The notes under the pieces are model-generated. The model saw only the letters and a program-made list of their open reading frames with translations, searched no databases and was not told where the DNA came from. Below are positions 9,008-63,661 of a stretch of DNA of 64,000 nucleotides, one piece after another. The position numbers were made by a program, and so were the translations under genes. Position 1 is the stretch's first letter, and each line of letters begins with the position of its first letter. The stretch spans positions 17,174,001 to 17,238,000 of the forward strand of contig JBHGNT010000006.1 of the NCBI GenBank assembly GCA_043228905.1. Reading direction: 5' to 3'. This DNA comes from Azolla caroliniana (lineage: Eukaryota; Plantae; Polypodiophyta).

Positions 9008-11539
9008 AAGGAAGCGAAATAACTGGATCGCAAGGAGAAGCAACATGTGTGACACCTAGTGGTGCATGTAAACTAACACTACTCAACAAGAAGGACAAGC
9101 GTCAGATACAAGACTTCAAGAAGATGCTGAAAGAAGAAAGCATAATTGAAGAAGAAGAATTCGTGTCTCATATTCTAGAGGTAGCCTCATTTAACGACAC
9201 CATCGGTGAAATCGAGGAAGTCGTGGAATTGAGCTACCCTCACGATCAAAATGTGATTTCGGTTAACTCCGTCAACATGTACGCTAGCATCGATGAATAT
9301 CATCGAGGCATCTTGATGGAGGAAGCTGAAGTCAACACAAAATATAAAACGGTGGATAAGAAGATCAAGCCAGTTGTGGTTCCGCTACCGGAAGATAGCT
9401 GGTAGAAGATGAAAGAAGTTGCCAATGATCCAAGCTTAAGGGATCCAAAGGCAATAGGTCATGTCTTCACCAAAGAGACGAAAGGAAAGCTACAAGTTGG
9501 AAGGGAAGATTTCCTTCTCCTTGAAGAGGAGAGAATGTTCCGCGGAATGCTTCCATGGGAAAGCCTTTGCCTTCTCTCCACAAGAGATCGGATGTGCCGA
9601 CTCGAAGATGATAGAGCCGATGGTGATTTTTACGGTGCCGCATGTACCTTGGAACCTCAAGCTGATACCAGTTCCAAGAGCTCACATTCCAAAGTTGATT
9701 GAGCTTCTAAAGGAAAAGGTTAGGATGGGAATTCTTGAGCCATCCAATGCTCCCTACTCTAATAGATGGTTTACGGTGCCGAAGAAGAACGGGTCCTTAC
9801 ACTTTATACAAGATCTCCAACCCGTCAACAAGGTGACGATCCGAAATGCCGGAATTGGTCCAAGCGTGGATGAATTTGCCGAAGCTTTCGCGGGAAGATC
9901 GATCTATTCCATTGGTGATCTCTATTCGGGTTATGATTAGTTTCAATTGCTCGTCGATAGTAGAGATATAATGACAATGAGGACGCCGATCGGGTTGGTA
10001 AGGATGTGCACCTTACCCCAAGGTGCGACAAATTCCGTAGCCCACATGGTGAATGCCATGAACAAAGTGTTGAGGAATTCTATCCCTGATATCACAATGC
10101 CCTTCTTAGACGACATTCCAATCAAAGGATGCTTGGTGGAAGAAAAAGATGAATCGAAAGATGACGATGGTTGCCGAAGATTCGTCATCGATTATATAAA
10201 GGATAGTGAGAAGGTGTTGCAAAAGCTTGAGGATGCGAATCTCACGTTTTCGGGAGAGAAGTCTGCATTCGGTCAACCAGAAATATTGGTAGTAGGAAAT
10301 TTATGTGGGTCTTATGGCCGGAAGCCATCTCCATCCAAGGTGAACGCTATTCAAGAGATGAAAGAAGAATGTGTGTCTCAAACGGAGGTGCGAAGATTCT
10401 TGGGATCATGTGCATTCTATCACATATGGATTCCACATTATGCCCATGTCGTTGAACCATTGTATGGACTATTAAAGAAAAGGAAGAAGTTTGAATGGGA
10501 AGATGAGCATACCTACGCGATTCGAAAGCTAAAGAAACTATTATTGGAAGCTCGAGCACTGCGCAAAGCCAACTACACCGATGGTACCCTGATATATGTG
10601 ACGGTGGATACGAGCCCAACCAGAATTGGATGGGTGATAAACCAAGAAGACAAAGAAAAGAATCGATATGCAATCCGATTCGGTGCGAAGGTGTTAACTG
10701 AAAGACAAAGGAAGTATGGTCAAGTAAAGAGAGAGCTATGGGGAATAGTATCCGCAGTTAAAATCGACTGTGACTACCTTATAGGAACAGAGGTCATAAT
10801 CGAAACCAATTGTCTACCTATTCTCGGAATGATATCCGGTTGTGCTACACCGGATATTGCTATGCTACGATGGATTGCTTATATCAAATCCCTCAACCCC
10901 GAGATTCGGCATATAAATGGAAAGCATAATGTGGTGGCTGATATGTTGTCAAGGGCGAGGTATGAGGGTGAAGAAGATTTGCACTCCGACGAAGAGGATG
11001 TTGGCCTAAACTTCTTTACGGTTTCTTGTGCTCGGGTGCTAGCAATGTTCAAAGTAGAAGATTATGAGGGTGAATTCATTGAAATTGGCAAATACTTAAG
11101 CTCTCTTACAAAAGATGAATCATGGTCAAAGGAAGACTTCTACCGAATTAGGAAGAAGGCCTACAAGTTCTTCCTCAAAGAAGGACATCTATGGAAGTTT
11201 CCGAAGAAGAAGAATGGAACTCCACTTCGAGTGGTGTGCAAGAAACAGGATCAACAAACACTAATTGCTAAATTTCATGATAGTGTGTGGGCAGGTCATC
11301 GTGGTATATGGGCAACATTTGCAAAGCTCAAGGAGAAGTATTGGTGACCGGGTGTTTACAAAGATGTAGCAAGCTATGTTGAAACATGTGAGCAATGCCA
11401 ATTATACTCGAATATTCAACATAGGGATGAACTTCAGCCGACATATCCATTATCAATGCACTATAAGTGGTTGGTAGACATACTGGTTATGCCAATGGGA
11501 TTGGGGCAAATGAAATATCTCGTGCTAGCAAGAGAGGAT
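8944..11539 (+). pseudogene. C pol part 1 (RT, RNase H, INT N-terminus)
   Basis: ORFs 9461..9940 and 9947..11347: PFLDD, VDTSPT, ADMLSR, FHDSVWAGHRG. Confidence 0.92.
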
Positions 11540-11975
11540 TGTTACCCGTTCCTTTGGGTGAACACCTTCGATAGATCTGCGTCTATCGGTCTTCAAGGGC
11601 GTGGTACGTGAAGGCTCGTATAGAGGCGTCGAGAGAGATACAGGGCTCAGAGAGAAAACACTAGCGAGGTTTTGATAGACGTGGCGGCGTGAAACTCATA
11701 GGTATAGATCGAACCACAGACTAATGCAACACAAATAGGCACAATTAAGATATATTACTATGGCAGAAAAGGGTTACAGAACACGGCCTATGGACGGTGA
11801 CCTTAAGAGTTTATCTAATTACGAATGACTAAGCTAGTGCTTCCGCCTATATTTTTTTCTCCCCTCGTTTAAATAACTTTTCCCCTAACACATAGCCGAG
11901 CCATCGGTGGCCCGTGATACTCGGACTCGGCGTTTGCTAATTTCCTAATTTTACATTTATGTCCTCTGGACAACA
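11540..11975 (-). repeat. 3' LTR of E
   Basis: Direct repeat of 16067-16523 with a ~21-bp deletion. Confidence 0.93.
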
Positions 11976-11977
11976 CC

Positions 11978-12020
11978 TGGCACGCCCGTGGGACAGGACC
12001 TTGTCCGTCGGACCCACGAC
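11978..12020 (-). other. tRNA-Arg 3'-half mimic ending in CCA at the PPT position of E
   Basis: Minus strand GTCGTGGGTCCGA-CGGACAAGGTCCT-GTCCCACGGGCGTGCCA, then GG, then the LTR. Confidence 0.75.
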
Positions 12021-16066: not shown

Positions 16067-16523
16067 TGTTACCCGTTCCTTTGGGTGAACACCTTCGATA
16101 GATCTGCGTCTATCGGTCTTCAAGGGCGTGGTACGTGAAGGCTCGTACAGAGGCGTCGAGAGAGATACAGGGCTCAGAGAGAAAACACTAGCGAGGTTTT
16201 GATAGACGTGGCGGCGTGAAACTCATAGGTATAGATCAAACCACAGACTAATGCAGCGCAAATATGAACAATTAAGATATATTACTATGGCAGAAAAGGG
16301 TTACAGAACAGGGCCTATGGCCGGTGACCTTAAGAGTTTATCTAATTACGAATGACTAAGCTAGTGCTTCCGCCTATATTTTTTTCTCCCCTCTTTTCTA
16401 AGGTACTTCTCCTCGTTTAAATAACTTTTCCCCTAACACACAGTCGAGCCATCGGTGGCCCATGATACTCGGACTCGGCGTTTGCTAATTTCCTAATTTT
16501 ACATTTCTGTCCTCTGGACAACA
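16067..16523 (-). repeat. 5' LTR of E
   Basis: TG..CA termini; TATA-like TTATTTAAA and CT-rich downstream region on the minus strand. Confidence 0.93.
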
Positions 16524-17354
16524 AGGATCTCACCAACCAAGTAGAAGGACGGGCACTAAGGAATAAAACAACTTCGGCGGTTTGTAAGTTTCTCCTTGAA
16601 GATGTTATTTGTCGATATGGATGCGTCGGCAAAATAGTGGCCGATAGGGGAGAATTAGATGCGAATGAAGTTAAAGAGTTCTTTTTAAGAATAAGCGTCA
16701 AATTATCACTCACCATGGCATACAACCCGGACGCAAATGGGAAGGTGGAACGAGGACATAGTCCAATTGTAAAAGCTCTAGCAAAGACTTGCAATGGCAA
16801 GATGGGAAATTGGCCACGATTACTACCTTATGCATTGTGGGCAGATAGAACTACACATAGCACGACTACGGGATATATGCCCGCCGAACTCATATTAGGA
16901 CAAAAAGCAATAATGCCTATTGAGCAAAGTGTTGCTTCGTGGACATTTTTGCCATGGCAAGAGGAAATGACTCGGGAAGACTTGCTAGCCACGAGGATTC
17001 AACAGTTAGAACGAAGGCCCGAAGATGTCGAGTTGGCAATAGAACGGTTGCGCCAAGCTCGATTGAAGAACAAGGAGAAAAATTGAAGAAGGAGATTGGG
17101 TTCTTGTCTATGATAGTAGACTCGATAATCATTATAGCACTGCTCGAAAGTTTGCAAAATGATGGTTTGGCCCGTATATGGTCAAGAAAATAGAAAGCAA
17201 TGCAACCTATTTTTTAGCGGAGTTAGATGGAACTCGACTTGCTTTGCCAATAGCAGGGAAGAGGATCAAGATCTTTAAGAGAAGAGAGGCACCAAATCTT
17301 GAGATCGAAGCTCTAGATGATGTATCCTCGAACATCGAGGTTGAAGAAGAGTAA
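16524..17354 (+). pseudogene. C pol part 2 (integrase core and C-terminus)
   Basis: ADRGE..AYNPDANGKVERG..LPYALWADRTT; frame ARED|LTNQ continues across E; no chromodomain evident. Confidence 0.9.
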
Positions 17355-23752: not shown

Positions 23753-23814
23753 CTTGTTTTACCGGTCCGATGAAACCGACTCTCAGAAGCTTATCGATTT
23801 CCTCTTTAACTTTT

Positions 23815-24270
23815 TGTTACCCGTTCCTTTGGGTGAACACCTTCGATAGATCTGCGACTATTGGTATTCAAGGGCGTGGTACGTGAAGGCTCGTAACAGA
23901 GACATCGAGAGAGAGACAGGGTTCAGAGAGAAAACACTAGCGGGGTCTTGATAGATGTGGCGGCGTTGAACTCATAGGTATGGATCAAAGCACAGACTCA
24001 TGGAGAAAAATGGGCACAAATCAAATCTATTAATATGACAGAAAAAGATTACAGAACGCGGCCTATGGCCGGTGACCTTACAAGTTTATCTAGTTACGAT
24101 GGCCTAAGCTAGTGCTTCCGCCTATAGTTTTCGTCTCCCCCTCTCTGAGGTACTGGTCCTCGTTTAAATAACTTTTCCCATAATACACAGCCGAGCCGTC
24201 GGTGGCCCGTGATACTCGGACTCAGCGTTTGCTAATTTCCTAATTTTACATTTCTGTCCTCTGGACAACA
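23815..24270 (-). repeat. 3' LTR of F
   Basis: Direct repeat of 33199-33653. Confidence 0.94.
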
Positions 24271-24272
24271 CC

Positions 24273-24315
24273 TGGCACGCCCGTGGAACAAGACCTTGTC
24301 CGTCGGACCCACGAC
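24273..24315 (-). other. tRNA-Arg 3'-half mimic ending in CCA at the PPT position of F
   Basis: Minus strand GTCGTGGGTCCGACGGACAAGGTCTTGTTCCACGGGCGTGCCA-GG-LTR; same motif as in E with two transitions. Confidence 0.75.
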
Positions 24316-24379
24316 TTACAAAATACTAACAATATTACAAAAATTGCCTTTTAGGCGTGATCCTCGTTTCATTCCTCCT

Positions 24380-27300
24380 TTAAGATGTCGAGGATGCTTT
24401 CGGGGTCCGGGGTGGTGGCAGGGTGGTCTGGTTAGACTGTCGGTGCGGGGGGTTGAGTTTGGTCTGGGGGTGGCATATCTTCTCGGGCGTCCACCTCGGG
24501 TGCGACCGATTCTTCTGGTGGGGGTGTGGGTTCGTGGACGCTGACCTCTACTTCGACAGGATCTGGTACCGTGTGGGCGTCCATGGGATGTCTGTTGGCC
24601 GGGGCAAGTTCCTCCTGTGTCGTGTCCGTGATCTCCTTGCTGGAAGGTTCTTCCTTCTGCTCTGTGGCCGTTGGAGGGCTGGTGGGGATGGCTGCGAGTC
24701 GTTCTCGTTCGAAGGCTTCTGCTTCCAGGTGAAACAACATCTAACTGTCATTGAAGTCCTCCATTATTTGCTCGATTGCCGCGGTGTGAGATTTTGCCAA
24801 GGACTGGTAATCCTTGGTTAAATCTGCACGCAGGTTTTGTATGCTGGCTTCGTCCATTTTGTATAAGCCGCGGCCCTCCTTCCGTCAGTTCTCGGCGTCG
24901 GCGCGTAAAATATGCAATTCGGCAACTTGGGCTGCCCATTCGTCTCCTGCACGACTTAATGTTTCCTCGACCTTTTTGGTAAGGTGTTGGCATTGTTTCT
25001 CGATCAGTATTCGGATGCGTGTCTCATCCATTCCGGGTTGTCCTCGGATGGCTGCTAATTCCTGTTTTAAGCCGTCGACCTCGGCCTGAATCTTCTGTGT
25101 CCTTAGCTCATAGATGGCCTGACTGTTCTTTGCATCCGCGGTTACGAGCTGGAGAGCCTGCTCGTAACGCTTGGTGAGTTCTTCGGTGGCTTGCTCCCTT
25201 TCTTTTTGACACGTGGCCCGGATTTGTTCCCGTTCGACAATTCTCTCTTCTGGCAGGGCGAAGTAGGAATCCGATAATGCGTCTTTTTGTTCCGAAAGTA
25301 GCTTGCATTTGATGAAAAACTCGCCAGCCATTTCTTTGAGGGTCGTACGCTGACTCTGCAGCTGGGCATTCTCCGCGATCATCCTCTCCTCCCGTTCGCG
25401 ATTTCTTTCCTCCTGCCGTTGGTTCCAGTCTTTTCCATTGTCGAGCATGGCCTGTAGGTCTAGAACCTCCTTCTCTTTCTTCACCACTGTGGCTGCGTAT
25501 TCCTCCAGCTTGCTTTTGAGTTCGGCTTCCTTGCCCGCGGCTTGCGCTTGTACCTAGCCCAGTGCTTCGTTCTGTTCGTGTATCCTTTGGGCGGCCTGGG
25601 CTCTCATCTCGGCCATCTGCTTGGAAGTTTCTTCTTTTAGGCGAACCATCGCCTCTTGATGTCGTTGTTCGTGTCTCTCGATTCGCCGTTGTTCTTCTTT
25701 AAGCTCCGCACGGTAATCCCGGAGCGGGGGTTCTGTCTGGGTTGCCACCTCCTTGGGTGCACAAGGTGGTGGTATCTCAGTCTTCTCCATGGGCGTGGGC
25801 GCCTCGGTTGTTGTGCAGGCATCGACCATTTGTAATGAGTCTGTTTGTGTGCTGGCCTGCACCGTCAGGATTGAGTCGGTGATGGTGCTTTCATCCATCA
25901 TTGTTATGCGTGGAGGCGTTGGGAGGGCCTCGGTGATCGTTACCGAAAGGCTCAAGAGTTGTTGTTCCAGCCGGTTTTGCTACCAGGCTGCCAGCTTCTG
26001 GTTCGCAGCGTGCCATAGTTCTGTAGCCATCTTAGCCTGTTTTTGGGCTATTTTTATCTTTCAGGCCATGTCTTTGGCCGCTCGCGTAGTGCGATCCAAG
26101 TCCCGATATGCCTTGATAAGGGCCGTGTTCAACTCGGGGACCACCATGAGGAGAGCGGCCTGTTTTGCCAGCTTCTTCCTCCAGATTTTTTGTAAACCCC
26201 TGTCCTCCTAGGGCGAAATTTCACCTATTAGTGCACGTTGAATCATTTTTGTTTCGGCGTGCTCTTCAGCCATTCGAGCGGCTGTCGCGACTTGGGCTCT
26301 GGCGAGGAAGTCGACCAGCTCGAATGACGTACCAAGGCGTAGGAGCACACTAAATTCCTACGCCTCTGTGGGGAGGTTTTTATACCCGAGGACCTCATCC
26401 TCTGAGATCTGCGTTGTCTGCCCATGCTCGATCATTCCCTGGTTCAGCGATGCCTCCTCAAGGGTGATGGCCAGGTTGCTCTGTCTAACCACTAAGGCTT
26501 GCTCCTGTTGTGGCTCTTTCTGTTCTTCCGAGGACTCGCGGTTGAGTCGTCTTCTCTTGCTTGGTTGTGTTTGGGGTTCCGGGGCCGGTAGTGTCCTTTC
26601 CTCCGCCTGCTTCCTTTTCTGGGGTCATGGTGGTGCAGCCTGCTGTGTGTTGGGGCGTGGGCTAGGTCCTGGCTGTCAAATGGTGATGTCATCGGCCATG
26701 TTGTCTTCCGCGGCTACCTCCTCCTCCCATTCTTGGCAGGTCTCGGAAACTGCCCTTTTTTGTTGGGGTTGGGGGGGTGGTGGTGCAGATGCGGGTTTTT
26801 GGTCGGCGGCAGGAGGTGAAGGCAATGTGGCCTCCTCCCATGCTTCATGGCTGATGGCAATGAATTTCTCTCTCTGCCTTCGTGGTGGTGGTGGGGACGT
26901 GAGTGTGCGAGGGGAAAGAAGCGAAGAGGGTGGGTATAGAACCATCAAAAAGTGGGTAAGAACAGACAACATCTTCTTACCGGACTGAAATGAAGCTAAG
27001 GCGGCGCGGAGTCCCTCGCCTGTGATGATTCCCCAATCGATTTTGTTTCCTTCATACACGCTGATGATGATGGCTGCATTGTTCTGCAGCATGCTCGTTG
27101 GGTTCGTATGCACGAACGCATACTCCATTAATATACGAGCAATCTCCCCGAAAGCTTTGTTGGGACCACCATACGTGCGATATGCCTTCCCTGAGGCTGA
27201 GTACTCACCGAAGTACGCCTTCATCTTTGATGCCGGGGGTATGTCGACCTCATGGTCCCCTCCCCGTTGCAGGTCCAAAACAGCCCGAAGCACGTTGTTG

Positions 27301-27437
27301 GTGATGGCTTCGGGACTTATACGTTTAGCCACAATTTGGGCATCTGGGTGCGCGGGGGCATCGATGATCTTCAGGTAACCGCCCATTCCTTGTTCCTGGA
27401 GCCAGGCGCGGGTTTTTGTTGAGGCGGTAAGAGGCAT
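24380..27437 (-). pseudogene. Extra ORF3 of F (~1000 codons when reconstructed), in the env position
   Basis: ATG at 27437 (MPLTAST..); fragments 26676..27500, 25554..25955, 24885..25487, 24432..24740; E/Q/K/R/A-rich heptad-like region. Confidence 0.82.
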
Positions 27438-27877
27438 GGTGGAGATGGAGACGGGGTTCAACCGTGTGGAAGCTGAAGAAGAGTGATGAGGCGAGGGCAA
27501 GACACAGGAGGAACAGCAGGAAGGGGAAGTCCAGCAGAGGGGTTATGAGAGCGAAAGAGGGCTTGAGGTCAAGAGCGTTTAGCGTGATGAGGGCGAGACG
27601 GGGTTTTTCTGAGCTTGAGAGCAATGGAGATGGGGAGCGATAATGGTCTGTGCTGCGTTTTGGAAACGGTTTTAGTAACTTACTCCTAGGGTTTTGTGCC
27701 TGAAGCGAATCCTGAAGATTCTGAGTCGTGGGTGCCATAATAAGTGACTAGCACCACGTGTCCTGAAGGTGAGTGGTGTGCTTCTAGTGCTTTGCATGTG
27801 CTTAAATAGGTACTAACTGAGTGGTGGCGAGTGGTGCTCCTAAAATTGTGGGTGCCTAGGTGGGTGGTGTAGGTGTA

Positions 27878-30800
27878 GCTAATCAGTGGCTAAACTATGG
27901 TTAATCCTACCTACTACTACTTTTATTAATTTCAAGAAGGTGGGTGAGTCCTTATTCAGGGGGACACATGGCGTCCTCCGTGGTGGTCTCCCGAGACTCG
28001 TTTGTGCCGTGTGGCTCGGTCAACGGGTTGGGTGGTGTAGTCCCTCGATATGGTCGAAGTCGGAAACCATTGGCCCAGCTTTTGACCGTGTCGCCGGCGA
28101 GTGTGCTGAGCTGGAACGTCCCGTTGAACTTGTCGATAATCTAGAATGGACCGGTCCACCGAAATCTTAATTTTCCCGGCATTGACCCGAGTCGTGTTTG
28201 GAAAAGAAGAACTGGTTTGCCGATGGTGAGCTCCTTATCCAACCCGTGTCGATGTCGATCCAGGAAAGCCTTGCATTGCCGTTGGCGTTGTTTGAGCTGG
28301 GCCATACTCTGTATTCTATCTTCGCCGAGTTCGAGGAGTTGTTCCAGCTGGGATTGCTCGGATTGGGCCTCGGGGAGCCGTGCTTTGACTTGAACTCGAA
28401 GGCTCGAGACTTGGAACTCAACGGGCATTACGGCTTCTAACCCGAACGCCATTCGAAAGGGGGTTGATTGGATGCTTGTTTTGAAAGTCGTACGATACGC
28501 CCACAACGCGCTCTAGAGTTTGTCATCCCAATCGGTCCTGTTTTCATTGACGATCTTCTTCAATATGGTTTGGAGGATTTTAGTGGTCGATTCTGCCAAG
28601 CCGTTCACCTGCGGGTAGTATGGTGTGCTTTTCTTGTGCACCACCGCCTAGTGGTGTGTAAGCTCACGTATTATATGATTGATGAAGTGCCCACCTTGGT
28701 CACTAACGAGCTCGATTGGGCATCCGTAACGGCACCAGAGGTGCTCGTACACGAATTTATCCATGGATGCCGCCGTGTTATCTCGGAGTGCCTTAGCCTC
28801 GACCCATTTGGTGCAGTAATCCGTGGCAACGATAATATACCTATTCCCTGTTCAGCCCGCGGGTGGTTTGAAAGGGCCTACAAAATCCAAACCCCATTTT
28901 TGAAATGGGTCCAACGGAAGAATTGGCTGGTGTGGCATCCGTGACTGTTCCATTGGTTGCCCCATTCGTTTGCACAAATCGCACTGCCGGCAAAACTCGT
29001 GAGCGTCTTTCTTCGTTGTCGGCCACCACAATCCACTTTGCCAAACTTTCCTTGCCGTGGAATCCCCGGCGTAGTGCCCCCCAGCTACTCCCTGGTGGGC
29101 TTCCTGAAGAACGACGTTCTTCTCGAATTGCCGAATCGCTTGGCGCCATATGCCGTCCGAGCCTTTGTGGTAGAGAATGTCCGAGACGAGGCAAAAATTC
29201 CGGCTACGCACTTCTAGGCGTTTTCTCGTGTCAAGGGTCATGTGCTCGGGAGGTACACCGGTAGTGAGAAAATGGGTCATCTCCGTGATCCATTCATCTC
29301 CTTTATCGTCAGGTTAAATAGGCTGGCGTCCGGTAGCTCGTTGTACGTTGTTTTCGCCGGTTCTCCTGACTCAAGACGGCTCAAGTAGTCGGCGACGACA
29401 TGTTGTACCCCGGGTCGATGCTGAATCTGGAATTCAAACTCTTGTAGTAGGAGCATCCACCGAGCCAACCGTTCAGTAAGGGTTGGCTTATTGACCCAAT
29501 AAAGAAGGGCCAAGTGATCCACGTGAAAGGTAAATTTTCGTCCCAAGAGGTAATGCCGAAATTTATTGATGCTATAAATCATACCGAGGGCCTCCCGCTC
29601 GGTGGTGGAGTAATTCTTTTCCGCGGTCGAGAGCCGTCGGCTGGCGTAGTACACGGGCCTATACCAATTCGGGGGTGTGCATTGCATCAGGGCACTTCCG
29701 ATGGCGATGTCTGAAACATCTACGAAGACATGAAACGGTTCGGACCAAACCGGAGACTGGACCACCGGGGCATGTGACAGCATTCGTTTCAGGGTCTGAT
29801 AGGCCGTGTCCTCGACTAACATCCATTGGAAAGGAAGGTTGTTGCTGGTGACTAAGAACGCGCATTTCGCTAGGTTTAAACTCAATCGAGCTTGGCGACA
29901 TCGGTCCAGGTAGAGTCGTAACTGGGTCATGTGTTCCCGTCGATGGCCATACACGGCGAAATCGTCGAGAAAGACTTGCATGAACGCCGGGATGTAGTCA
30001 TGAAAGATTTCGGTGATGATGCGCTGGAACGTAGCCGACGCCGTTTTTAGACCGAACATCATAACTTCTGCTACAAAAACACCCCATTCCGTGACGAAAG
30101 CGGTTTTCTCCTGATCGTCCAGGTGCATTCTTATCTGGTTATAGCCGCTGAACCCGTCGAGGAAACTGTAGCATTCGTGGCCGGCTACCGTGTCGAGGAT
30201 GCTATTCGTGAATGGGAGAGGGAAACCGTCAGTGACTGTTGTCGCGTTAAGCTTCTGATAGTCGACGCAGACGCGGATTTTTCCGTTCTTCTTTGGGACC
30301 ACTACGATCGGGCTCAACCATGTAGCCCGTTTAACAGGGCGAATCAAGTCCACTCGGAGTAGTTTGTCAATTTCCTCTTTGACTTTAGCGGCGTAGTTGG
30401 GGTTCATCCTGTAGCGCCTCTGCTGAACCGGCTGAGTGTCGGGTAAGATGTGAATTTGATGTTGGTAGTATTGAGGATCCAGCCCCTTCATATCGGTGTA
30501 AGACCAAGCGAAAACATCTTGGTAGTCGGTGAGTAATTTTACGAGGCATGCCCGTTCTCCGGTTGGTAGATTATTGGCAATTTGTACCGTATGGGGATTC
30601 TTGTCTGAACCGAGGTTTATTGTTTCCAGGGTTGATGCTTTCACTCGTTGTGAAATGGCGAGTTCGCGTTCGAAAGCCTCCCGAGCATGAGGTAGCTCGG
30701 CAACTGTGGTTGCATCTGGTTCATCCTGGGGTGGTGACTCCTTCGTGACTTCCTCGTCTTTAGATGGCTCGATGGTTGGTAAGGCATTGATTTCGAAGAG

Positions 30801-31355
30801 AGGGATGATCGTGGGATGATCATCTAGGAAGTCATCGACCTCCTCATCGGCCAACCCGTCCAGTATATGGACCCCTTCCGCGTATAACGGCGAAGTGTTG
30901 AGGGCGACGGGGGCTCGTTCTTCAGTGATGATGCGGACTTTTTTCTTGCCTCTTTGGAACGAGATCATGTTGCGTTGCCAATGTTGCTTGATATTCGTTG
31001 TACGCAACCATGGTCGACCTAGTAACAATGGGTAGGCGCCTTGTGTCTCCAGTCTCAGCACGACGGCCGAGATCATGAACATATGGCCTCCGAGTGTGAA
31101 GTCGAGATGGCGGATTAAACCAATGGGGCGAACGGAGCGTGTGTCGGCCATCCGAAGCCAAAAGGGGCATGGTTCCCATTGATTCAGGCTGAGGTTGAGA
31201 CATGTTAACTCGCTAATAACGTTTACGCCGGATCCTCCGTCGATGATGCATCCGTGCAGGTCTTGTCCCTTAATGATGATTCGCACGGCTGGGTTCTGAG
31301 AATCCATGAGTGGTGGACCAGTTCCTACTTCGGTGAGGTGTACCGGTGGCGTCAC
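27878..31355 (-). pseudogene. F pol (PR, RT, RH, INT), disrupted
   Basis: IIDGGSGVN, VCVDY, LDGFSGYNQI, VFLDD, FVDVSD, EAHQG..GH..C..C, WGLDFVGP, WTGPF; in-frame deletion of the RT thumb near 29840. Confidence 0.93.
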
Positions 31356-33124
31356 GGCCTTAGTATGGCCTGGAGTGCCGCCAGGGTGTCCCGAAATCTC
31401 GGCATGAGTGGTAGCAGTTTATGTAGGGGCAGCGAGATGCGGAAGTTGGTAAGAACATCCCATAGTTGGTCGTCCTCCGACGACGTGGATGGTGTCGGGG
31501 TTTGTGGTACTTCACTGGGCCCATCCCTCATGTCAGTTTGCATGCGTGCGGCATTATTTTTATTGGCTGTGTCGACCCATTGTTTTGCTGTCTAACGTTC
31601 GTCATCCGGGATTTGCCACTGAGTATTCTGCGCTTTACTCCGAGTAGTGACCGTTTGAACATCGGCCATGATACTGTTCACCGCGGGTGCCTTGCCACGG
31701 CTGGTTGTCGGACATTGCGTGGCGTAGTGGCCTGGTTGATTACATTTAAAACATGTCACGTTGGCCGAGCTGCTGGTGTCCGCTCAGTCTGTGTGTGGAA
31801 GCTGTTGTTGTTGATTCTCGGTCTCGTTTGGTGGTGGGTTGTTCCGAGGTGCGTTGGAGTTGCGCTAGTCATTTTGAGGAGCATCCCGTCGGCGGTTGTG
31901 ATTAGGTCTTCTATTGTTGCGTGTGTTGCGGTTGTCGTTTCGCCGATCAATGCGTGAGTTCCTTCGGTCATACCGATCAGTGCGATCGTCATCGTATCGA
32001 GCATAATCGTCGTGTCGGTCATCGCGATAATAATCACGTCAGTAGTCGTCGTCTCGACGCCATCGATCCGGGGATCACGGTTGGTCGTTATCCTGGTCTC
32101 GATAGATATATCGCTCGTCCTGCCGAGAGTATGTATTTCGTGGCTCGATCTGGCGGACCGGTGCCGTCGTTGTGCGGTTCAGCATATTATATTCGCACTG
32201 CTCGACCGTGTGAGCTCGAGACTGACAGATCGGACACTGTGGTCGGTGGGGACATTCGAGGGCCAGGTGCCCTGATCCTGAACACGCAGTGCATTGGAGG
32301 GCTTGGCGAAAGCGATTGTCCTCTTGGGGAAGAGCGTTTTGCAAGGATGTCATCGAGAAGGCCGTGCCGTGCTGGTTCCGATCGAGGGCGAGAATGCACG
32401 CTATGACTTGTTCGATAGTATGGTTGGCGAAATTTGTAAGTGCGAGAATCGTTCGTAGAGGCTCTCATAAACTGGATAGGAAAGTGTCTGGTATATGTTG
32501 TGCCGAAACATCATTGGCCACTTGTCTGTAGAGATCCTGGAACCGGATCGTGAACTGCGCGACCATTTCGTGCGGTTCCTGGCATATAGAGAAGAATTGC
32601 CTGAGCAGTTCCCGTTTAGGCACCTCGCGATGAAAAAGTTCAAGGAACTTTGTACGCACGATTTGGAAAGTGGTGGCCTCTCCTATTTCGAGGCGAGAGT
32701 ACCATCGTGCGGCCGGTCCATCGAGGGAGAGTGTGAACTCGGCAATCTTCGAGGCATCGATTTCGGCCGGCGTGAGGCGGTGCATGGAGTGGTTAGCCTG
32801 CCATGTGGATATGAAGGCACGGATGTGTGACTCTGCGTCTGGTCCGTCGGTATATCGTGGGTATGGGTACGGCATGATGTCGTACTGTGGGTCTTCTGGT
32901 AGCACCGGAAAAGGGTTTAGTTCCAGTTGATTGACCTCCGGAGGGCTCGACGGGGGTTCTGGTGGTGAATCAACTCGCGATCGAGTGTCCGGTGGCGAGG
33001 ATTGCACTGGACAAGCCTCCGATTGATCGGGAAAGGATTGGTCAGTGACCGCCGAGTCGGAAGTTCCTTCGACTGGCTCAAGGCGTCGGGCGGGTGGCCA
33101 AGACCTCGTGGTGCGAAAGGGCAC
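31352..33124 (-). pseudogene. F gag, disrupted
   Basis: Retrotransposon gag-like SLDGPAARWY..FLELF; several CCHC knuckles (CTACSGSGHLALEC, CPICQSRAHTVEQC). Confidence 0.88.
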
Positions 33125-33180
33125 CGTAACGGCGGCTGGTGGTTACCTTCAACGAAGTTCGCTATGCACTCACAGCTGTA

Positions 33181-33193
33181 ACCGGGCGTGCCA
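33181..33193 (-). promoter_or_regulatory. Primer binding site of F (tRNA-Arg type)
   Basis: Minus strand TGGCACGCCCGGT, 5 nt from the 5' LTR; complementary to the recalled plant tRNA-Arg(UCU) 3' end ..ACCGGG(C/U)GUGCCA. Confidence 0.8.
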
Positions 33194-33198
33194 AATTC

Positions 33199-33653
33199 TG
33201 TTACTCGTTCCTTTGGATGAACACCTTCGATAGATCTGCGACTATCGATATTCAAGGGTGTGGTACGTGAAGGCTCGTAACAGAGACGTCGAGAGAGAGA
33301 CAGGGTTCAGAGAGAAAACACTAGCGGGGTCTTGATAGACGTGGCGGCGTTGAACTCATAGGTATGGATCAAAGCACAGACTCATGGAGAAAAATGGGCA
33401 CAAATCAGATCTATTAATATGACAGAAAAAGATTACAGAACACGGCCTATGGCCGGTGACCTTACAAGTTTATCTAGTTACGATGGCCTAAGCTAGTGCT
33501 TCCGCCTATAGTTTTCTTCTCTCCCTCTCTGAGGTACTGTCCTCGTTTAAATAACTTTTCCCCTAATACACAGCCAAGCCATCGGTGGCCCGTGATACTC
33601 GAACTCGGCGTTTGCTAATTTCCTAATTTTACATTTCTGTCCTCTAGACAACA
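33199..33653 (-). repeat. 5' LTR of F
   Basis: TG..CA termini, adjacent to the PBS and gag start. Confidence 0.94.
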
Positions 33654-36591
33654 CTTTTGCTACATAGTTTGGGTTCATCTGGTAACGTCGTTGCGCCACC
33701 AGCTTCGCATCTTTGCTAAGGTTGATCTGGTGTTGGTACAGTTGGGGATCCAATCCTCTCATATCCTCATATGACCTGGCGAACACATCTCGGAATTCTA
33801 TGAGCAATTCAATCATAACCCTTTTCTCTTCCCATGGCAATTCTTTTGCCACGTTCACCGGTTTCAGCGCTCCATCAGTAGCGAGGTCCACTTCTTCTAA
33901 CTAAGAGGCCTTCACTCATTGAGATACCACCATTTCCCGTTCTAACGATTCATGTGCCTGTCACAGTTCCCAGATCGCCTCCCGATCCGGTTCGTCAAAT
34001 ACTTCCTCTGAGTTCACGACATACGGTATGACGGCTTCGGCGACATCTACCTCAAATAACGGTACTATCTTCAGATGTTCATCTAGGTACCAGTCGATTT
34101 CGTCGTTTGCTAATCCATCCAACATGTTTATCCTTTTTGCGTATAGCGGCGTCAGCTCCTTACTGGTACCCGCGCGTGGTTAGGTCGGTACCCACACTTT
34201 CGTCTTTCCTCTTCAGAAGGTAATGACGTTCTTCTGCCAGTTTTGCTTTATATGCGTCGTCATTAGCCATGGTCTCCCTAACAACAGGGGGATAAGCTCC
34301 TTGCACGTTGAGTTGCAGGATTACCGCGAATATCCGGACTGCATATCCACCAATTGTAATCTCCAAGCTCCGAATGAATCTGGTTGGCCGAACCGAACTG
34401 GTATCCGTCATTCGCAGTCAGAAGGGGCATGGTTCCCATTCTCTGATACCAAGGGTGTGGCAGGTTCATTGGTTTATCACGTTTACTACAGAACCTCCAT
34501 CCACAAACTGTTTCAGGTATCTCTTTTCCTTTGATAATCATCGTTATCGTCGGACTACTGGTGTCCACTATTGTCGGTCCTTCCTCCAGGTTGGAGAAGA
34601 ATGTTGGTGCCGGTGCCAGGTTTTGTGATGTTACCACCGATTTAAGTCCTTCCGTGAATCAAGGAACTAACTGCAACACGCGTGCCACGTGGGGTCATTG
34701 TCCATGCTCCGTAATGGTTCCTCCAAAGGCTGGATCTATTCCTTCACTTCGGCCACGTTCCGTTCATTTGCTTTTTGTATCCATTTGGTGGCTTGCTTCT
34801 TGATGGCCTCCTGGGTCCCCCACTCGACAGTTTTTCCTTTGGATCATGTTGTGACTTGTTGAACATCCGTCACCTCGGCAATCACCATGTTTATCACTAA
34901 CTACTTCTTAGTGGACTTGATTGGGCACTGGCTACTGTAATGTCCTTCCTTTCACCAGTAGTAGCAATAAACCCTCCGGTTATTACTTGATTCTCCTTTT
35001 TCTATCATTCCCTAGTTAATACCAGAATTCATCTGGTTGGTTTCATCTGGCCTCCTTTGCTCTAGTTGTGGGACTGGGACCGTTATTCTTGTATCTGGCT
35101 CCCGTTGGTACTCTCTGGCCGGTTCCCAACATTCTTCTCGGTGATACTTTCCCTTACGGTTGTGGCGGCGGAGGTTCCGGTGCCCTTGGCGTTCCGGGTA
35201 CCGTCTATCCTGATCTAGGTACCCCTGTCGTTCCGGGTACCTTTCGCCGTCTCTCCTTCAATCATAATCTAGGGAGTAGTCGCAATCGTAACGGTCTTGA
35301 TTGTAGTCTTCCCCTCGCCGGTAGTTGTGGTCTCGGTCGTAATCCTCTCGTCTTTTGTCGTTATACCGGTCCCTTCATTTCGGTTGATATCATTCTTCCC
35401 TCTAGAATCGTTCCTCTTCCGGTTGTTGCTCGCTCTGGGGCTCAATATGTCAGACCGGTGCTGCTTGCCGATTGAATAGGTTGTACTCACACAGGTCCAT
35501 GGTGTGTGACTGGGAATGGCACATCATGCACTGTGTCCGCATCGTACATTCTAATGTAGAGAGACCGGGGTTGAAGCACATTGTACATTGGTCTGCCTGT
35601 CAAAACCGTAACTCCTCTTCTCTAGGTAGCGCTCATTGTAGAGCTCCCATCGCCATGTGATTGCTATTCTGGGCCCTATCCATTTCTAGCACCCGGTCGA
35701 CAACTTCATCAATGGTGTTGGTTCGGAAGTCGAATACTGACAGCGTCGTTCATAGCGGCTCCCGGAGTGTGGCCAGAAAGACCACTTTTGCCTCGTCTTC
35801 CGAAGGTGCCCTTTTCAGCTCAATGTGTAGTGTCTGGAAACAGATAACGAATTGCAGGACCGTTTCATTCGGCTCCTGATAGACCGTATAGAATTGGCCG
35901 ACTAGCTCTCTTTGCTCCACCTATCGGTCGGTGGAACAATCGCAAGAATTTATCCTGCAAGGCTTTGAATGTGGCCAACCTCCCGAGGAGGTACTTTTTG
36001 TGCCACCTTGCTGTTGGTCCCTCCAATGTCATTCCAAATTCCATGATCTTTGAGCGTTCGATCTCTGCTTCTGTCAACCGTTGCGAGACATGGTTCGCTT
36101 CCCATGTCTACATGAAAGCATATACGTGCGCCTCTGTGTCCAGTTCGTCCTGGTACTTCGGGTATGGGTATGGCATGCTATCGTCGTCGAAGGGTAGTAC
36201 TGAGACTGGTGTTGGTGTTTGATTCTCTTCTTTCTCCGACTTCCAGTTCGGTGTTGGCGTTGATACGCAATCAATCTTTTTCTCGTATTGTTGGCCCGGT
36301 GGTGGTGTTGATACACACTCAGCCATTTTCTCTGATCGTTGGTCTTGGTTTGTCTTGTGGCCCGGCAGTGTGGGTAATGTTGTTCTACTTCTGCTGTCAG
36401 TGTGTGCTCCGAAATCTCTTCCTCCGGATTGTCCGAGGTATCGTGATTGCTTCAATAATTTGACTTCATGTTGTGCTCGTTATCTGATTCTAACTCAAAG
36501 TTGGAAAAGGCTTCCGATTCTCTGGCGCCTGCGGCAAGGGTTTGCATTATCGATTCTGCCTTGCCGTAAATTGCTCAGGCTACAGCCTATT

Positions 36592-59285: not shown

Positions 59286-59556
59286 CGAAGAGGTCGTTGC
59301 CTCTGTGTATTACCGCCGCCTGTGGCGAAGACAGTGAGCTCAAGGGTGTTGCCTTGAAGCTTCACCATTGTACATCTCTGTTCATAGTGATAGTTGGAGT
59401 TTGAGGACTCCCGTGGTTTTTCCCGTATAGGGTTTTCCACGTTAATCCCTGTGTTATCGTGTCTTTCTCTGTGTTTCCTATTTTCTGCTGCATTGATTCG
59501 TGATTTCTCGGTTGTGGCCGAACGGTGAAGGTGAATCGGAGCGTTGATTCGCAACA
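58824..59556 (+). repeat. 5' LTR of M with 26/27-bp U3 tandem array (~58902-59068)
   Basis: TGTTG..CAACA; units GGATGA(A/T/C)GA..ACCCGGC..GCC; TATAAAT near 59171. Confidence 0.95.
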
Positions 59557-59587
59557 AAGTGGTATCAGAGCGACGGCAGTGCAGAAA

Positions 59588-62500
59588 ATGGAAGGCGGCA
59601 ACAGCGGGCAGCCGGGGATGATGGTGCTGAATGCGCAGAACTACGCCGACTGGAAGATCAAGATGGAGGATCTTCTGATTGTTCGGGACCTGTACGAACC
59701 GATTGACAGGTCGGAAATACCGAAGGGGGTACTTGAGATGGAATGGAGGCTTCTGAACCGGAAAGCCGTTGCAACCATTCGGCAATACGTCGACGTGAGC
59801 GTTCTACAACATGTGGCGAACGACACCAACGCATACGAGATGTGGCGGAAGCTGTCGGGCCTCTACGAGAGGAAGAATGCGTTGAACCGGACCTCCCTGA
59901 TGAGGAAGATAGTGAACCTCAAGTACCGGGACGGCGAGAGCATGGTGGAACACGTAAGCACGTTCATGGGATTCGTGAACCAGCTTGCGGCGATCAAGTT
60001 CCCGCTGGAGGATGCAATGCAAGCCATCATTCTGATGTGTACATTGCCGGAAAGCTGGGAGAACTTGGTGGTGACTCTCAGCACCTCCTCCACCGAAGAT
60101 AACTTGTCTCTACAAACGGTAAAGACAAGTATTTTGAACGAAGAAGCGCGTCGGAGAGATAAAGAACCGGCCTCCGACCCGAAGGCGCTGCTTACCGAAT
60201 CGGAACGGGGAAGACACTGGAACCGGAGTCCGCAAAGACGGGAGAAGTCGGGGACCCGGTCGCAGTCAAGAGGAAGACCCACATGCTTCCACTGTGGGAA
60301 GCCGGGGCACTTCCGGAAGAATTGTCGGCATTACCGAAAGGACAACGGAGCCGACGACACCGATTCGAAGAAGTCACCGGAGAGAAACGGTGCATACCGG
60401 GGAGCCACGGACCGGAGAGGTCCGGATCGGCGAGGGCAGGACCGGAAAGGAACGACGGCACTCGCGGCAAGTGAAGAAGAAATAATGCTCATTACCGAAG
60501 AGAGGGAGCTGAACCTTGCCGGTGAAGAGATGACCTGGGTGGTCGATTCCGGAGCGTCGTTCCACCTGACCCCGGAGAAGAAATACTTCTCATCCTACAT
60601 AGCCGGTGAGCACGGCTGTGTCCGGATGGGAAATGAAGGTACGTGCCGGATTGCCGGCATAGGAGACGTGTGGCTGATGACATCAACCGGATGCAAGATG
60701 CTGTTGAAGGATGTTCGACACGTTCCGGAGGTTCGATTGAACCTGATTTCGGCCGGGAGGCTAGACGATGAAGGCTACACGGGTAGCATCCGGAACGGTG
60801 TCATGAAGTTCAGCAAAGGGAGCCTGATAGTGGCTCGGGCCCGGAAGATCAACACACTGTACCTGATGAATTCCCGGTTGTGTCCGGAAGAGTTGAACGT
60901 GGCAGCCGACACTGCCGGTGAGCTGTGGCACAAGAGACTGTGCCACATGAGTGAGAAGGGGATGAAGAGGCTTGCAGAAGACAACCTTATTCCAGTGAAG
61001 CATGTGCACCTGGAGAAGTGCACCGACTGTCTGGCCGGTAAGCAAAACCGGACCTCCTTCCACTCAAGGCCACCGATGAGACGTAGCGCACCATTGGAGC
61101 TGGTGCACACTGACGTGTGTCAAGTAGAAACGAAGTCACATGGCGGAGCCCAGTACTTCGTAACATTCATAGATGACCATAGCCGGAAGTTGTGGACGGC
61201 ACCGTTGATCACAAAGGACCAAGTATTGTCCGTCTTCAAAGAACTCCACGCGAGAGTGGAAAGAGAATCCGGCAAGAAGCTGAAAGCGATACGAGCGGAT
61301 AACGGAGGGGAATACCGGGGGCAGTTCGAGGAGTATTGTCGCTCGAAGGGAATCCGGCTCGAGTTTACTGTGCCGAAGACGCCGGAACTGAACGGGCTGG
61401 CCGAGAGGATGAACCGGACCATAATGGAGAGGGTCCGGAGTATGCTGGCGCATGCAAAATTACCCAAGGGGTTTTGGGCTGAGGCAATGTCGACGGCGAC
61501 ATACGTGATAAACAGATCACCCTCAGTACCTTTGGACGGAGACACGCCGCAGAAAGTGTGGACCGGTAAGGAAGTGTCCTACCGGCACCTGAAGGTGTTC
61601 GGGTGTCTCGCATACGTGCATGTGGCAAAGGACCGGAGAGGAAAGCTAGATCCAAAGACCCGGCCATGCATATTACTCGGTTACGGCGACGATGAGTTCG
61701 GCTACCGAGTATGGGACCCGGTCGACAAGAAGATATTCAGGAGTCGAGATATCATCTTCATGGAGGACAAGACACTCGCCGACTGGGAGTCGGAGAAGAA
61801 GATGAAGAGCTCCAAGTCGACCGGTGAGGATCAACTCTACAAGGAGCAGTCCCGACCGGCAAGAGACCGGTTAGCACTCGAGGATCCGGCCGAAGACGGT
61901 GAAGAAACAGAACCGGCCGAAGAAGATGAAAATGATACCGGAACCGGCCCCGATCCCGAAATGGATTCGGATGAAGAAGAATCGGAAGAACCGGTTACCG
62001 AAGCTCCGGAACGGAGATATCCTCTAAGAGAGAGAAGGGCCCCCCGGAGATTTCCGGAACCAGAGCACGTGCTGCTAACCGACGAGGGGGAGCCGGAGAA
62101 TTTTGAAGAAGCAGAGCTTGACACACATAGCCGCAGGTGGTTAAGTGCCATGCAGGAGGAGATGGATTCCCTGCATGAGAACCACACATATGAACTTGTG
62201 GAGTTGCCGAAAGGAAAGCGGGCACTTCGAAACAAGTGGGTGTTCAAGCTGAAACCGGGAGATGCCGGAAACCCCCCGAGATACAAAGCCAGGATCGTGG
62301 TGAAGGGGTTCCAGCAGAAGAAGGGTGTGGACTTCGACGAGATATTTGCCCCGGTAGTGAAGATGACCTCCATCCGGACGGTGCTGAGCATAGCGGCAAG
62401 CATGGACCTCGAGGTAGAACAGATGGACGTGAAGACGGCATTCCTTCACGGTGACCTCGAAGAAGAGATCTACATGCAGCAACCGGAAGGATTCGAGAAG

Positions 62501-63661
62501 AAAGGAAAGGAGCACCTGGTATGCCGGTTGAAGAAGAGCCTCTACGGTCTGAAGCAGGCTCCCCGGCAATGGTACCGGAAGTTCGACTCCTTCATGACAG
62601 ACGAAGGGTACCACAAAACGCAGACCGATCACTGCGTGTTTGTGAAGAAGTTCGAAGGAGGAGACTTTCTAATACTCCTCCTGTACGTGGACGACATGTT
62701 GATCGTCGGACGGGACCAGGTCAAGATACGGATGCTGAAGAAGGCTCTTCACCGAACCTTCTCAATGAAGGACCTGGGTCCGGCGAGGCAAATATTAGGG
62801 ATGCACATCATCCGGGACCGGAAGAAGAAGCAGTTGTGGTTGTCACAGGAGAAGTACGTGACAAAGGTGCTTCACCGGTTCAACATGTCGGAAGCAAGGC
62901 CGGTCGGATCGACCCTCCCGGCAAACTGCAAGCTGTCCAGGAAGCAAAGCCCCAAGACAAAGGCTGAGAAGGAGGACATGATGAAAGTACCATATGCCTC
63001 TGCCGTCGGGAGCTTGATGTACGCGATGGTGTGTACCCGACCGGACATAGGATATGCAGTCGGAGTGGTGAGCCGGTACATGAGCAATCCCGGCAAAGAG
63101 CATTGGAACGCGGTCAAATGGATACTCCGATACCTGAAGGGCACGGCAAACATGTGCCTCCGATTCGGCTCCGGTAAGCCCGAACTCGATGGATTTACCG
63201 ATTCGGATATGTCGGCTGATGCAGATACCAGCCGGTCCACATCAGGGTATGTGATGACGTATGCAGGGGGAGCTGTTTCATGGCAGTCGAGGCTGCAGAA
63301 GACGGTTGCACTGTCAACCACGGAGGCGGAGTACATGGCGGCTGTTGAAGCCGGCAAGGAAATAATATGGATGAAGGACTTCATTAGAGAGCTCGGTATC
63401 CGGCAGGAGGAGTACCGACTCTACTGCGACAGTCAGAGTCCCATCCACCTTGCGAAGAACGCGGCCTATCACTCCCGGACGAAGCACATCCAGCGAAGAT
63501 ATCACTGGATCCGGGAAAGGATAGAAGACAAGGAGTTCGTGCTGACGAAGATCCACACGGACGAGAACGGGTCGGATATGCTGACTAAGGTACTTACACC
63601 CGACAAGCTGGAAGCATGCCGGAAGAGGATCGGATTGGAGAGACATCCCATGCCGAAGTGA
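59588..63661 (+). CDS. Copia gag-PR-INT-RT-RNase H polyprotein (1357 aa from the first ATG)
   Basis: Uninterrupted ORF: CFHCGKPGHFRKNC, WVVDSGAS, LWHKRLCH, VHTDV/ADNGGEY/NGLAER, LLYVDDML, FTDSD..TEAEY..YCDSQS..SDMLTK. Confidence 0.97.
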   Translation: MEGGNSGQPGMMVLNAQNYADWKIKMEDLLIVRDLYEPIDRSEIPKGVLEMEWRLLNRKAVATIRQYVDVSVLQHVANDTNAYEMWRKLSGLYERKNALNRTSLMRKIVNLKYRDGESMVEHVSTFMGFVNQLAAIKFPLEDAMQAIILMCTLPESWENLVVTLSTSSTEDNLSLQTVKTSILNEEARRRDKEPASDPKALLTESERGRHWNRSPQRREKSGTRSQSRGRPTCFHCGKPGHFRKNCRHYRKDNGADDTDSKKSPERNGAYRGATDRRGPDRRGQDRKGTTALAASEEEIMLITEERELNLAGEEMTWVVDSGASFHLTPEKKYFSSYIAGEHGCVRMGNEGTCRIAGIGDVWLMTSTGCKMLLKDVRHVPEVRLNLISAGRLDDEGYTGSIRNGVMKFSKGSLIVARARKINTLYLMNSRLCPEELNVAADTAGELWHKRLCHMSEKGMKRLAEDNLIPVKHVHLEKCTDCLAGKQNRTSFHSRPPMRRSAPLELVHTDVCQVETKSHGGAQYFVTFIDDHSRKLWTAPLITKDQVLSVFKELHARVERESGKKLKAIRADNGGEYRGQFEEYCRSKGIRLEFTVPKTPELNGLAERMNRTIMERVRSMLAHAKLPKGFWAEAMSTATYVINRSPSVPLDGDTPQKVWTGKEVSYRHLKVFGCLAYVHVAKDRRGKLDPKTRPCILLGYGDDEFGYRVWDPVDKKIFRSRDIIFMEDKTLADWESEKKMKSSKSTGEDQLYKEQSRPARDRLALEDPAEDGEETEPAEEDENDTGTGPDPEMDSDEEESEEPVTEAPERRYPLRERRAPRRFPEPEHVLLTDEGEPENFEEAELDTHSRRWLSAMQEEMDSLHENHTYELVELPKGKRALRNKWVFKLKPGDAGNPPRYKARIVVKGFQQKKGVDFDEIFAPVVKMTSIRTVLSIAASMDLEVEQMDVKTAFLHGDLEEEIYMQQPEGFEKKGKEHLVCRLKKSLYGLKQAPRQWYRKFDSFMTDEGYHKTQTDHCVFVKKFEGGDFLILLLYVDDMLIVGRDQVKIRMLKKALHRTFSMKDLGPARQILGMHIIRDRKKKQLWLSQEKYVTKVLHRFNMSEARPVGSTLPANCKLSRKQSPKTKAEKEDMMKVPYASAVGSLMYAMVCTRPDIGYAVGVVSRYMSNPGKEHWNAVKWILRYLKGTANMCLRFGSGKPELDGFTDSDMSADADTSRSTSGYVMTYAGGAVSWQSRLQKTVALSTTEAEYMAAVEAGKEIIWMKDFIRELGIRQEEYRLYCDSQSPIHLAKNAAYHSRTKHIQRRYHWIRERIEDKEFVLTKIHTDENGSDMLTKVLTPDKLEACRKRIGLERHPMPK

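Follow-up and report, generated by a model that had tools for sequence, protein, structure and literature searches.

We describe the conserved replacement, in a clade of plant Ty3/gypsy retrotransposons, of the polypurine tract (PPT) by a putative docking site that matches the 3′ half of a transfer RNA. The site stands in two related minus-strand long terminal repeat (LTR) elements, F (33653-23815) and E (16523-11540), within a 64,000-nt stretch of the Azolla caroliniana genome (assembly GCA_043228905.1, contig JBHGNT010000006.1, positions 17,174,001 to 17,238,000 of the forward strand), referred to below as the window. Immediately before their 3′ LTRs, a 40-nt module reproduces the 3′ part of tRNA-Arg(UCU), CCA end included. 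Judging from the letters of this site and from modelled folds, host tRNA-Arg(UCU) probably docks on the minus-strand cDNA at this module and primes the plus strand. We are also slightly inclined towards a broader proposal, in which a whole land-plant Ty3/gypsy clade without a PPT would prime both strands with host tRNAs; the docking sites, bipartite and mirror images of each other, would open the T-arm about a hairpin in the template, and some families would use two different arginine tRNAs, one per strand.

Relatives of F were collected by an integrase alignment search of a metagenome collection, which returned 572 related stretches from 16 of its 64 parts; the best 80 were kept. Seven of these best 80 of 572 loci carry the module before a TGTT LTR start (L003, L008, L013, L036, L053, L079 and a variant, L028) and, together with F and E, provide the nine copies compared here, or eight close copies when L028 is set aside. 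The module occupies 24273-24312 in F and 11978-12017 in E, on the minus strand, the latter copy being identical to that of L003, and the junction with the 3′ LTR reads GTGGG...GGGCGTGCCA-GG-TG in both elements. A first-pass annotation, made from the letters of the window alone, had placed the motif at 24315-24273 in F and 12020-11978 in E, with two C>T differences and followed by GG and TG. These positions and letters are correct, except that contig comparison sets the start of the conserved unit at 24312 (GTGGG) and not at 24315. The spacing between CCA and the TG of the LTR is 2 nt in 9/9 copies (24271-24272 in F), with spacer letters varying between GG, AG and TG. The longest purine run within the final 15 nt before the LTR is 3 in all nine copies, in agreement with the earlier remark that the purine tract is absent from this place. 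In the window an exact 10-mer of the module occurs three times against 0.13 expected on both strands, always at these LTR junctions.

Alignment of 60-nt flanks shows that the module is conserved across families while its surroundings diverge: between-family likeness reaches 68-100% in the module (42-50% for L028), against 25-63% in the upstream 60 nt and 30-60% at LTR starts, with the near-identical pair L008/L013 set aside in the flank and LTR comparison. Among 52 near loci checked, all five that extend at least 2.5 kb beyond the integrase have the module, the rest being too short; in L036 and L079 it lies upstream in the contig. On a quick version of the tree, covering 75 of 81 sources and lacking L036 and L079, F, E, L003, L008, L013 and L053 fall within one 43-row clade with support 99; L028 lies outside it, and the module-bearing rows as one group receive a support of 53. 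In four more distant loci (L057, L063, L077 and L080; integrase 42-48%), which belong to a distinct, supported clade, the LTR is preceded by a purine tract, with runs of 8, 8, 4 and 8. The repeats of L042, L068 and L070, for which no LTR junctions were defined, were not scored.

Four public runs (three samples from three studies, two organism codes) were also inspected. Over 24268-24311 the summed depth of their contigs exceeds that directly upstream several-fold, a ratio that does not translate into copy number, and 5, 7, 6 and 8 contigs, respectively, leave the reference at 24312-24313 into unrelated sequence. The letters of E prevail among contigs at the two C>T places of F, and the insert loop is variable in organism B. 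No purine-tract junction appears among the 24 loose contig ends listed (133 further ends exist), and a viral contig collection returned no match to the protein alignment or the tRNA pattern.

The module corresponds to nucleotides 49-76 of tRNA-Arg(UCU) minus one base at 65/66, and comprises nucleotides 49-58, a 13-nt hairpin insert (24302-24290 in F) between positions 58 and 59, nucleotides 59-65, and nucleotides 67-76 with the CCA. We scored it against the bacterial tRNA-Arg(TCT) of locus L089, as a stand-in, and by eye against rice tRNAs, from which the host's own tRNA may differ. Rice tRNA-Arg genes with anticodon TCT end in GTGGGTTCGAGTCCCACC-GGGCGTG or close variants, without CCA, in the part of supplement 1 of PMC5492330 available to us. 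The bacterial gene in L089 has the same 3′ 28 nt plus CCA. In plant nuclear tRNAs the CCA is not gene-encoded; tRNA position 58 is usually m1A and position 55 pseudouridine. The eight close copies keep 24-26 of 27 tRNA positions (one inserted base in L079 set aside), and the insert measures 13 nt in all eight. Both the tRNA-Arg(UCU) assignment and the T-loop insert of the first-pass annotation are thereby supported, the insert following position 58. A tRNA pattern search gave 22 matches, and 19 of the 20 loci scanned were tRNA-Arg. Departures from the tRNA total 14, of which seven are wobbles and seven mismatches; the high-coverage contigs L003, L008 and L013 depart from it at positions 55 and 68 alone, where the result is a G-U wobble or, opposite 55, a mismatch.

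That the module is a tRNA gene or a tRNA-derived short interspersed nuclear element was rejected, since ARAGORN and Rfam revealed neither a full cloverleaf nor a 5′ half: ARAGORN finds no tRNA gene in the window or in the 80 loci, and Rfam no tRNA match over 11000-34500. The Arg(UCU) 3′ fragment is not in the Arabidopsis supplement of tRNA-derived fragments (PMC5389709). As a separate observation, L094 (129-274, from a Saccharibacteria metagenome-assembled genome) contains two adjacent odd tRNA calls, one an Asp(atc) call with an Arg-like acceptor and T-arm, the other with a short anticodon loop.

To prime the plus strand, a primer has to end no more than a few bases from the LTR, where the CCA at -2 is the sole conserved feature; this leads us to infer tRNA docking. 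On the RNA the module reads in the same sense as the tRNA itself; a tRNA can therefore bind it only on minus-strand DNA, and a two-part primer-binding site (PBS) of the Ty3 type is thereby rejected for the 3′ site. The complement of the module in minus-strand cDNA would constitute a second PBS for host tRNA-Arg. Once RNase H had cleared the genomic RNA, 27 of the last 28 nt of the tRNA are predicted to pair with the cDNA; a three-way junction would result, in which a single tRNA base bulges and the 13-nt insert, placed after position 58, is extruded as a hairpin of 4 bp. Reverse transcriptase (RT) would extend from the CCA, RNase H would remove the tRNA as it does at the minus-strand end, and integrase would trim the two extra bases before the TG. 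The element's RNA passes the site on, so that selection, and not recopying, would maintain the site's match to the tRNA.

Cofolding of the tRNA half with the minus strand, in which RNA energies stand in for an RNA/DNA hybrid and the bacterial stand-in for the tRNA, yields the three-way junction in E, L003, L008, L013 and L053, and nearly so in L036 and L079. The number of paired tRNA nucleotides, out of 28, is 27 for E, L003 and L053 and 26 for L008 and L013. Across all nine copies the z-scores range from -5.8 to -8.9, and none of 200 shuffles is as good. Docking of host tRNA on minus-strand cDNA had been the first of three models offered in the first-pass annotation; it fits best of the three, and priming from it we regard as rather probable.

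A possible but clearly less probable explanation, the main rival, turns on the module as copied in the element's own RNA: resistant to RNase H as a structured, tRNA-like fragment, this RNA would be cleaved behind the CCA through the specificity with which RT removes tRNA primers, and would then prime the plus strand instead of a PPT. It corresponds to the third model of the first-pass annotation, a structured primer that replaces the PPT. Such a primer would make a second tRNA unnecessary, fits the 2-nt geometry equally well, and accounts for the conserved inner hairpin. The C>T changes at F 61 and L036 65 preserve G-U pairs of the sense hairpin, and PPT sequences vary, may contain a pyrimidine and are not of necessity all purine (PMC3185511, from the extract available). 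The predicted folding speaks against an own-RNA primer, however, because in stability the module's sense RNA does not surpass shuffles (z from -1.26 to +0.44, and from -0.79 to +0.48 with flanks). Compensatory change is likewise found in the insert and not in the T-stem: the 4-bp insert stem has two-sided changes in 2/4 pairs, with seven two-sided cells (0/500 shuffles, relatedness uncontrolled), whereas the T-stem has them in 0/5 pairs, with six unpaired cells that stem partly from a register shift in L079. With covariation in the insert but none in the T-stem, the letters of the stem seem to be held constant by an external partner. G>A changes on the 5′ side of the stem in L053, and probably in L036, break the sense stem yet leave wobbles with the tRNA, and a self-made primer does not explain why unpaired letters of the T-loop, or the entire acceptor strand, are preserved.

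The docking of host tRNA on the cDNA and the broader proposal of mirror-image sites both draw on the 5′ end of the element. The PBS of F, TGGCACGCCCGGT, lies at 33193-33181 on the minus strand, 5 nt after the 5′ LTR, as first annotated; its 13 nt are complementary to nucleotides 64-76 of tRNA-Arg(UCU), CCA included (rice Arg tRNA57, by eye, in the same part of PMC5492330 supplement 1). Among public-run contigs one of the 13 places is variable; runs X18 and X19 have no contigs over this stretch, which is no proof of absence. At the 5′ sites the PBS, 13-14 nt long, is followed by a predicted hairpin (33162-33175 in F) and by a CGAAC box (33157-33161 in F), the complement of the T-loop GTTCG and a putative second part of a bipartite PBS. 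This box is exact in five of seven 5′ sites (F, L003, L022, L005 and L079), reads CGGAC in L013 and is lacking in L028. The layout of PBS, hairpin and CG(A/G)AC 30-34 nt from TGG is found at 6/7 sites, compared with 161 of 16009 background TGG sites (~1%). In two runs (organisms B and C) none of the five box places is listed as variable, while neighbouring places and the hairpin loop vary. On its template strand, the 3′ module shows the same order and spacing as this 5′ site. A similar arrangement is known from the bipartite PBS of Ty1 and Ty3 and from the extended tRNA contacts of HIV-1, where acceptor stem and T-arm pair with two template segments around a loop (PMC5371799, in the extract available). 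The 5′ site here appears alike; those segments, however, are used for the minus strand and form on genomic RNA the complement of the tRNA, whereas the 3′ module has the tRNA's own sense.

It is unlikely that the module serves packaging, RNA-end pairing or as a tRNA-fragment decoy, with the plus strand primed from a short or distant purine run. Runs of 7-10 nt are indeed present 47-177 nt upstream in all nine copies, and in L079 (~401-407) and L036 (~15-21) the module is preceded at 5-8 nt by seven purines with GGGG as their last letters, a run that resembles the sister-clade tract and is possibly a relic of an ancestral PPT. Yet the upstream runs keep no fixed distance and in F coincide with the last codons of the extra open reading frame (ORF), a distant primer would not yield the observed LTR boundary with its target site duplication (TSD), and the CCA is fixed at -2 in 9/9 copies.

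Self-priming, in which the CCA end of the RNA would pair with the element's own PBS, by circularisation or in trans, and replace the host tRNA for the minus strand, is very improbable. The complementarity of the motif's end to the element's own PBS, as noted originally, holds for F and not for E, which has no PBS. The module-PBS duplex is a perfect 11 bp in F and L003 (-24.6 kcal/mol), and weakens to -15.8 kcal/mol, with a mismatch, in L013, -7.7 in L028 and -7.0 in L079. The PBS of L079, shared with the related 5′ end L005, is TGGCGACCACGAT, which agrees at 13/13 places with rice tRNA-Arg(CCG) plus CCA (by eye), and the 18-nt PBS of L028 is nearest tRNA-Arg(ACG), at 14/18 against rice. The modules of both nevertheless stay of the Arg(UCU) type, and this switch of PBS with an unchanged module leads us to reject self-priming as a general model and speaks for the docking of a host tRNA. 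When covariation between the PBS and the 3′ mimic was examined, 3/5 elements with both ends paired poorly, and the second model of the first-pass annotation, pairing with the own PBS, accordingly fails in L079 and L028. L079 may be an assembly mosaic across its LTR; at the family level it agrees with L036, whose LTR is related and whose module is the same, and with L005, whose LTR end is related and whose PBS is the same. Self-priming would also leave plus-strand priming unexplained. Finally, that the module is a neutral relic of a single aberrant tRNA capture is hardly credible, for although it evidently derives from a tRNA with CCA and both F and E are decayed copies, it is conserved while its flanks are randomised, its insert carries compensatory changes, and no PPT is there to do the job.

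Several points weigh against priming by a docked host tRNA. The evidence consists of sequence and predicted folds, and the match was drawn with rice tRNAs and a bacterial stand-in in place of the host's tRNA gene. Half of the 14 departures mismatch the tRNA, among them C75>T in L079 (also in L028); we tentatively read the mismatches in F, L036 and L079 as decay. As the module is a tRNA copy, high cofold scores are trivial and have no power to separate a host tRNA from an own-RNA primer. L028, a whole but decayed element (80-634; 10277-10321), keeps just ~15 nt of the tRNA, without the deletion, and has a different, 8-bp hairpin in front. Only about five independent families are represented, and several contigs are of low coverage or possible assembly mosaics. 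As to the mirror layout, the 5′ sites stand for about three families, covariation in the 5′ hairpin does not rise above shuffles (104/500), and the folding model left the CGAAC box unpaired with the T-loop.

F has the features of a Ty3/gypsy element, namely two direct LTRs (TG...CA) with a TSD, the expected domain order gag-PR-RT-RH-INT and a tRNA PBS after the 5′ LTR, and lacks the canonical PPT abutting the 3′ LTR. With yeast Ty3 and retroviruses it shares LTRs, this domain order, the PBS and a primer end just upstream of U3; there a purine-rich, RNase H-resistant PPT fragment primes the plus strand, and here a tRNA 3′-half copy with CCA takes its place (PMC5371799; PMC12789967; both in extract). 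Its nearest pol relatives are contigs (60-67% at best, partial ones up to 82%), and the named ones are gene models of Riccia, Marchantia, Adiantum, Calypogeia, Tanacetum and pine, mostly at 37-57%. F and the homologues P0001, P0002, P0006 and P0008 have a single RNase H region and no aRH, and no chromodomain match was obtained in the integrase tail of F or of four homologues scanned.

As far as the consulted parts of PMC6317226 and PMC4408406 go, F shares with plant non-chromoviruses as a group (Athila, Tat/Ogre/Retand, Phygy, Selgy) the lack of a chromodomain, a length of ~10 kb, a 5-bp TSD and an extra 3′ ORF, and with TatIII, Ogre and Retand a tRNA-Arg PBS. It fits no lineage of the table in supplement 5 of PMC6317226 cleanly, by the part of it seen. 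The Tat clade (TatI-III, Ogre, Retand) was rejected for want of an aRH, and chromoviruses for want of a chromodomain after the integrase; moss Tat-like elements without aRH are described (PMC4408406). Most Athila elements differ in their usual tRNA-Asp/Asn/Ala PBS and antisense extra 3′ ORF, against an Arg PBS and a sense ORF here, and elements with an Asp-type PBS fall outside the clade in the tree; Phygy and Selgy differ in their 4-bp TSD, their Trp or Ala PBS and the absence of an extra ORF. Tf1/Sushi, Tcn1 and TAR, like F, encode a sequence complementary to their PBS, but theirs lies in the 5′ LTR and serves the minus strand (PMC6317226). Here the sequence is copied from a tRNA, stands ahead of the 3′ LTR and fails to covary with the PBS, for which reason a self-priming element of this type was rejected. 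The extracts of PMC6317226 and PMC4408406 make no mention of such a 3′ site. Searches of the open literature gave no description of tRNA docking in place of a PPT; an earlier one, for instance in a subscription journal or a Repbase entry, is possible. The Helenus, Ajax and Cassandra terminal-repeat retrotransposons in miniature are said to carry a small-RNA-derived sequence inside the LTR as a promoter and to keep their PPT; the module lies outside the LTR, at the primer position.

The minus-strand orientation first assigned to F is borne out by gag, pol and the extra ORF, all read on that strand. Its LTRs (33653-33199 and 24270-23815) are 95.9% identical in pairwise comparison and are flanked by the 5-bp TSD AAAAG (23810-23814 and 33654-33658). 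Part of the gag frame (32465-33142) matches PF03732 (E 3.7e-9); the PR-RT-RNase H frame (29277-31418) matches RVT_1 and RT_RNaseH, with an internal RT deletion in the protein alignment; and stops interrupt the integrase frame (27952-29313). The extra 3′ ORF (24369-27437; ~1020 codons, with stops) is coiled-coil-like, ends 57 nt upstream of the module and has no Pfam match; its N-terminal part bears a weak feature-level resemblance to Transposase_32 and ATHILA ORF1 clusters (scores 0.83-0.85, leads only). With stops in several frames and the RT deletion, F is a decayed copy.

At the very start of the LTR of F (24270-24258, minus strand), and of that of L003 (5028-5040), stands a small hairpin, TGTCC-nnn-GGACA, for which the module insert is another possible pairing partner; it was not seen at the LTR starts of L008, L013, L053, L036 and L079. 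In runs X1 and X3 an insertion of 31-38 nt is present at 24226-24233 in some of the LTR copies. Pairing of the CCA strand with an upstream TCACGCC stretch of E and F was dropped, as the stretch is not seen upstream in other families. E is a 5-kb deletion derivative, with LTRs at 16067-16523 and 11540-11975 (minus strand) and the TSD AGGAT at 11535-11539 and 16524-16528 (plus strand). Its internal deletion removes the PBS, gag, PR, RT, RH and part of INT, as a single event with TTT microhomology at the junction (16066-16061). F itself sits inside the RT region of G, a more ancient and decayed member of this lineage that occupies 33654-36590 and continues from 23810 downward on the minus strand, with 66-69% nucleotide identity to L005, L006 and L079; the ends and LTRs of G were searched for and not found. 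An unbroken Ty1/copia polyprotein frame of 1385 codons lies at 59504-63661 on the plus strand.

The PPT is treated as universal in the replication of LTR retroelements and retroviruses, and annotation tools look for it; a diverse and successful clade that lacks it demonstrates that priming of the plus strand is open to rewiring. Were a tRNA to prime on the DNA template, this would be a new natural mode of RT initiation that makes the ends of the element symmetrical, and would provide a short system, testable with synthetic oligonucleotides, for primer recognition by RT and RNase H. Should a tRNA-shaped piece of the element's own RNA be the primer instead, it would also represent a new kind of plus-strand primer.

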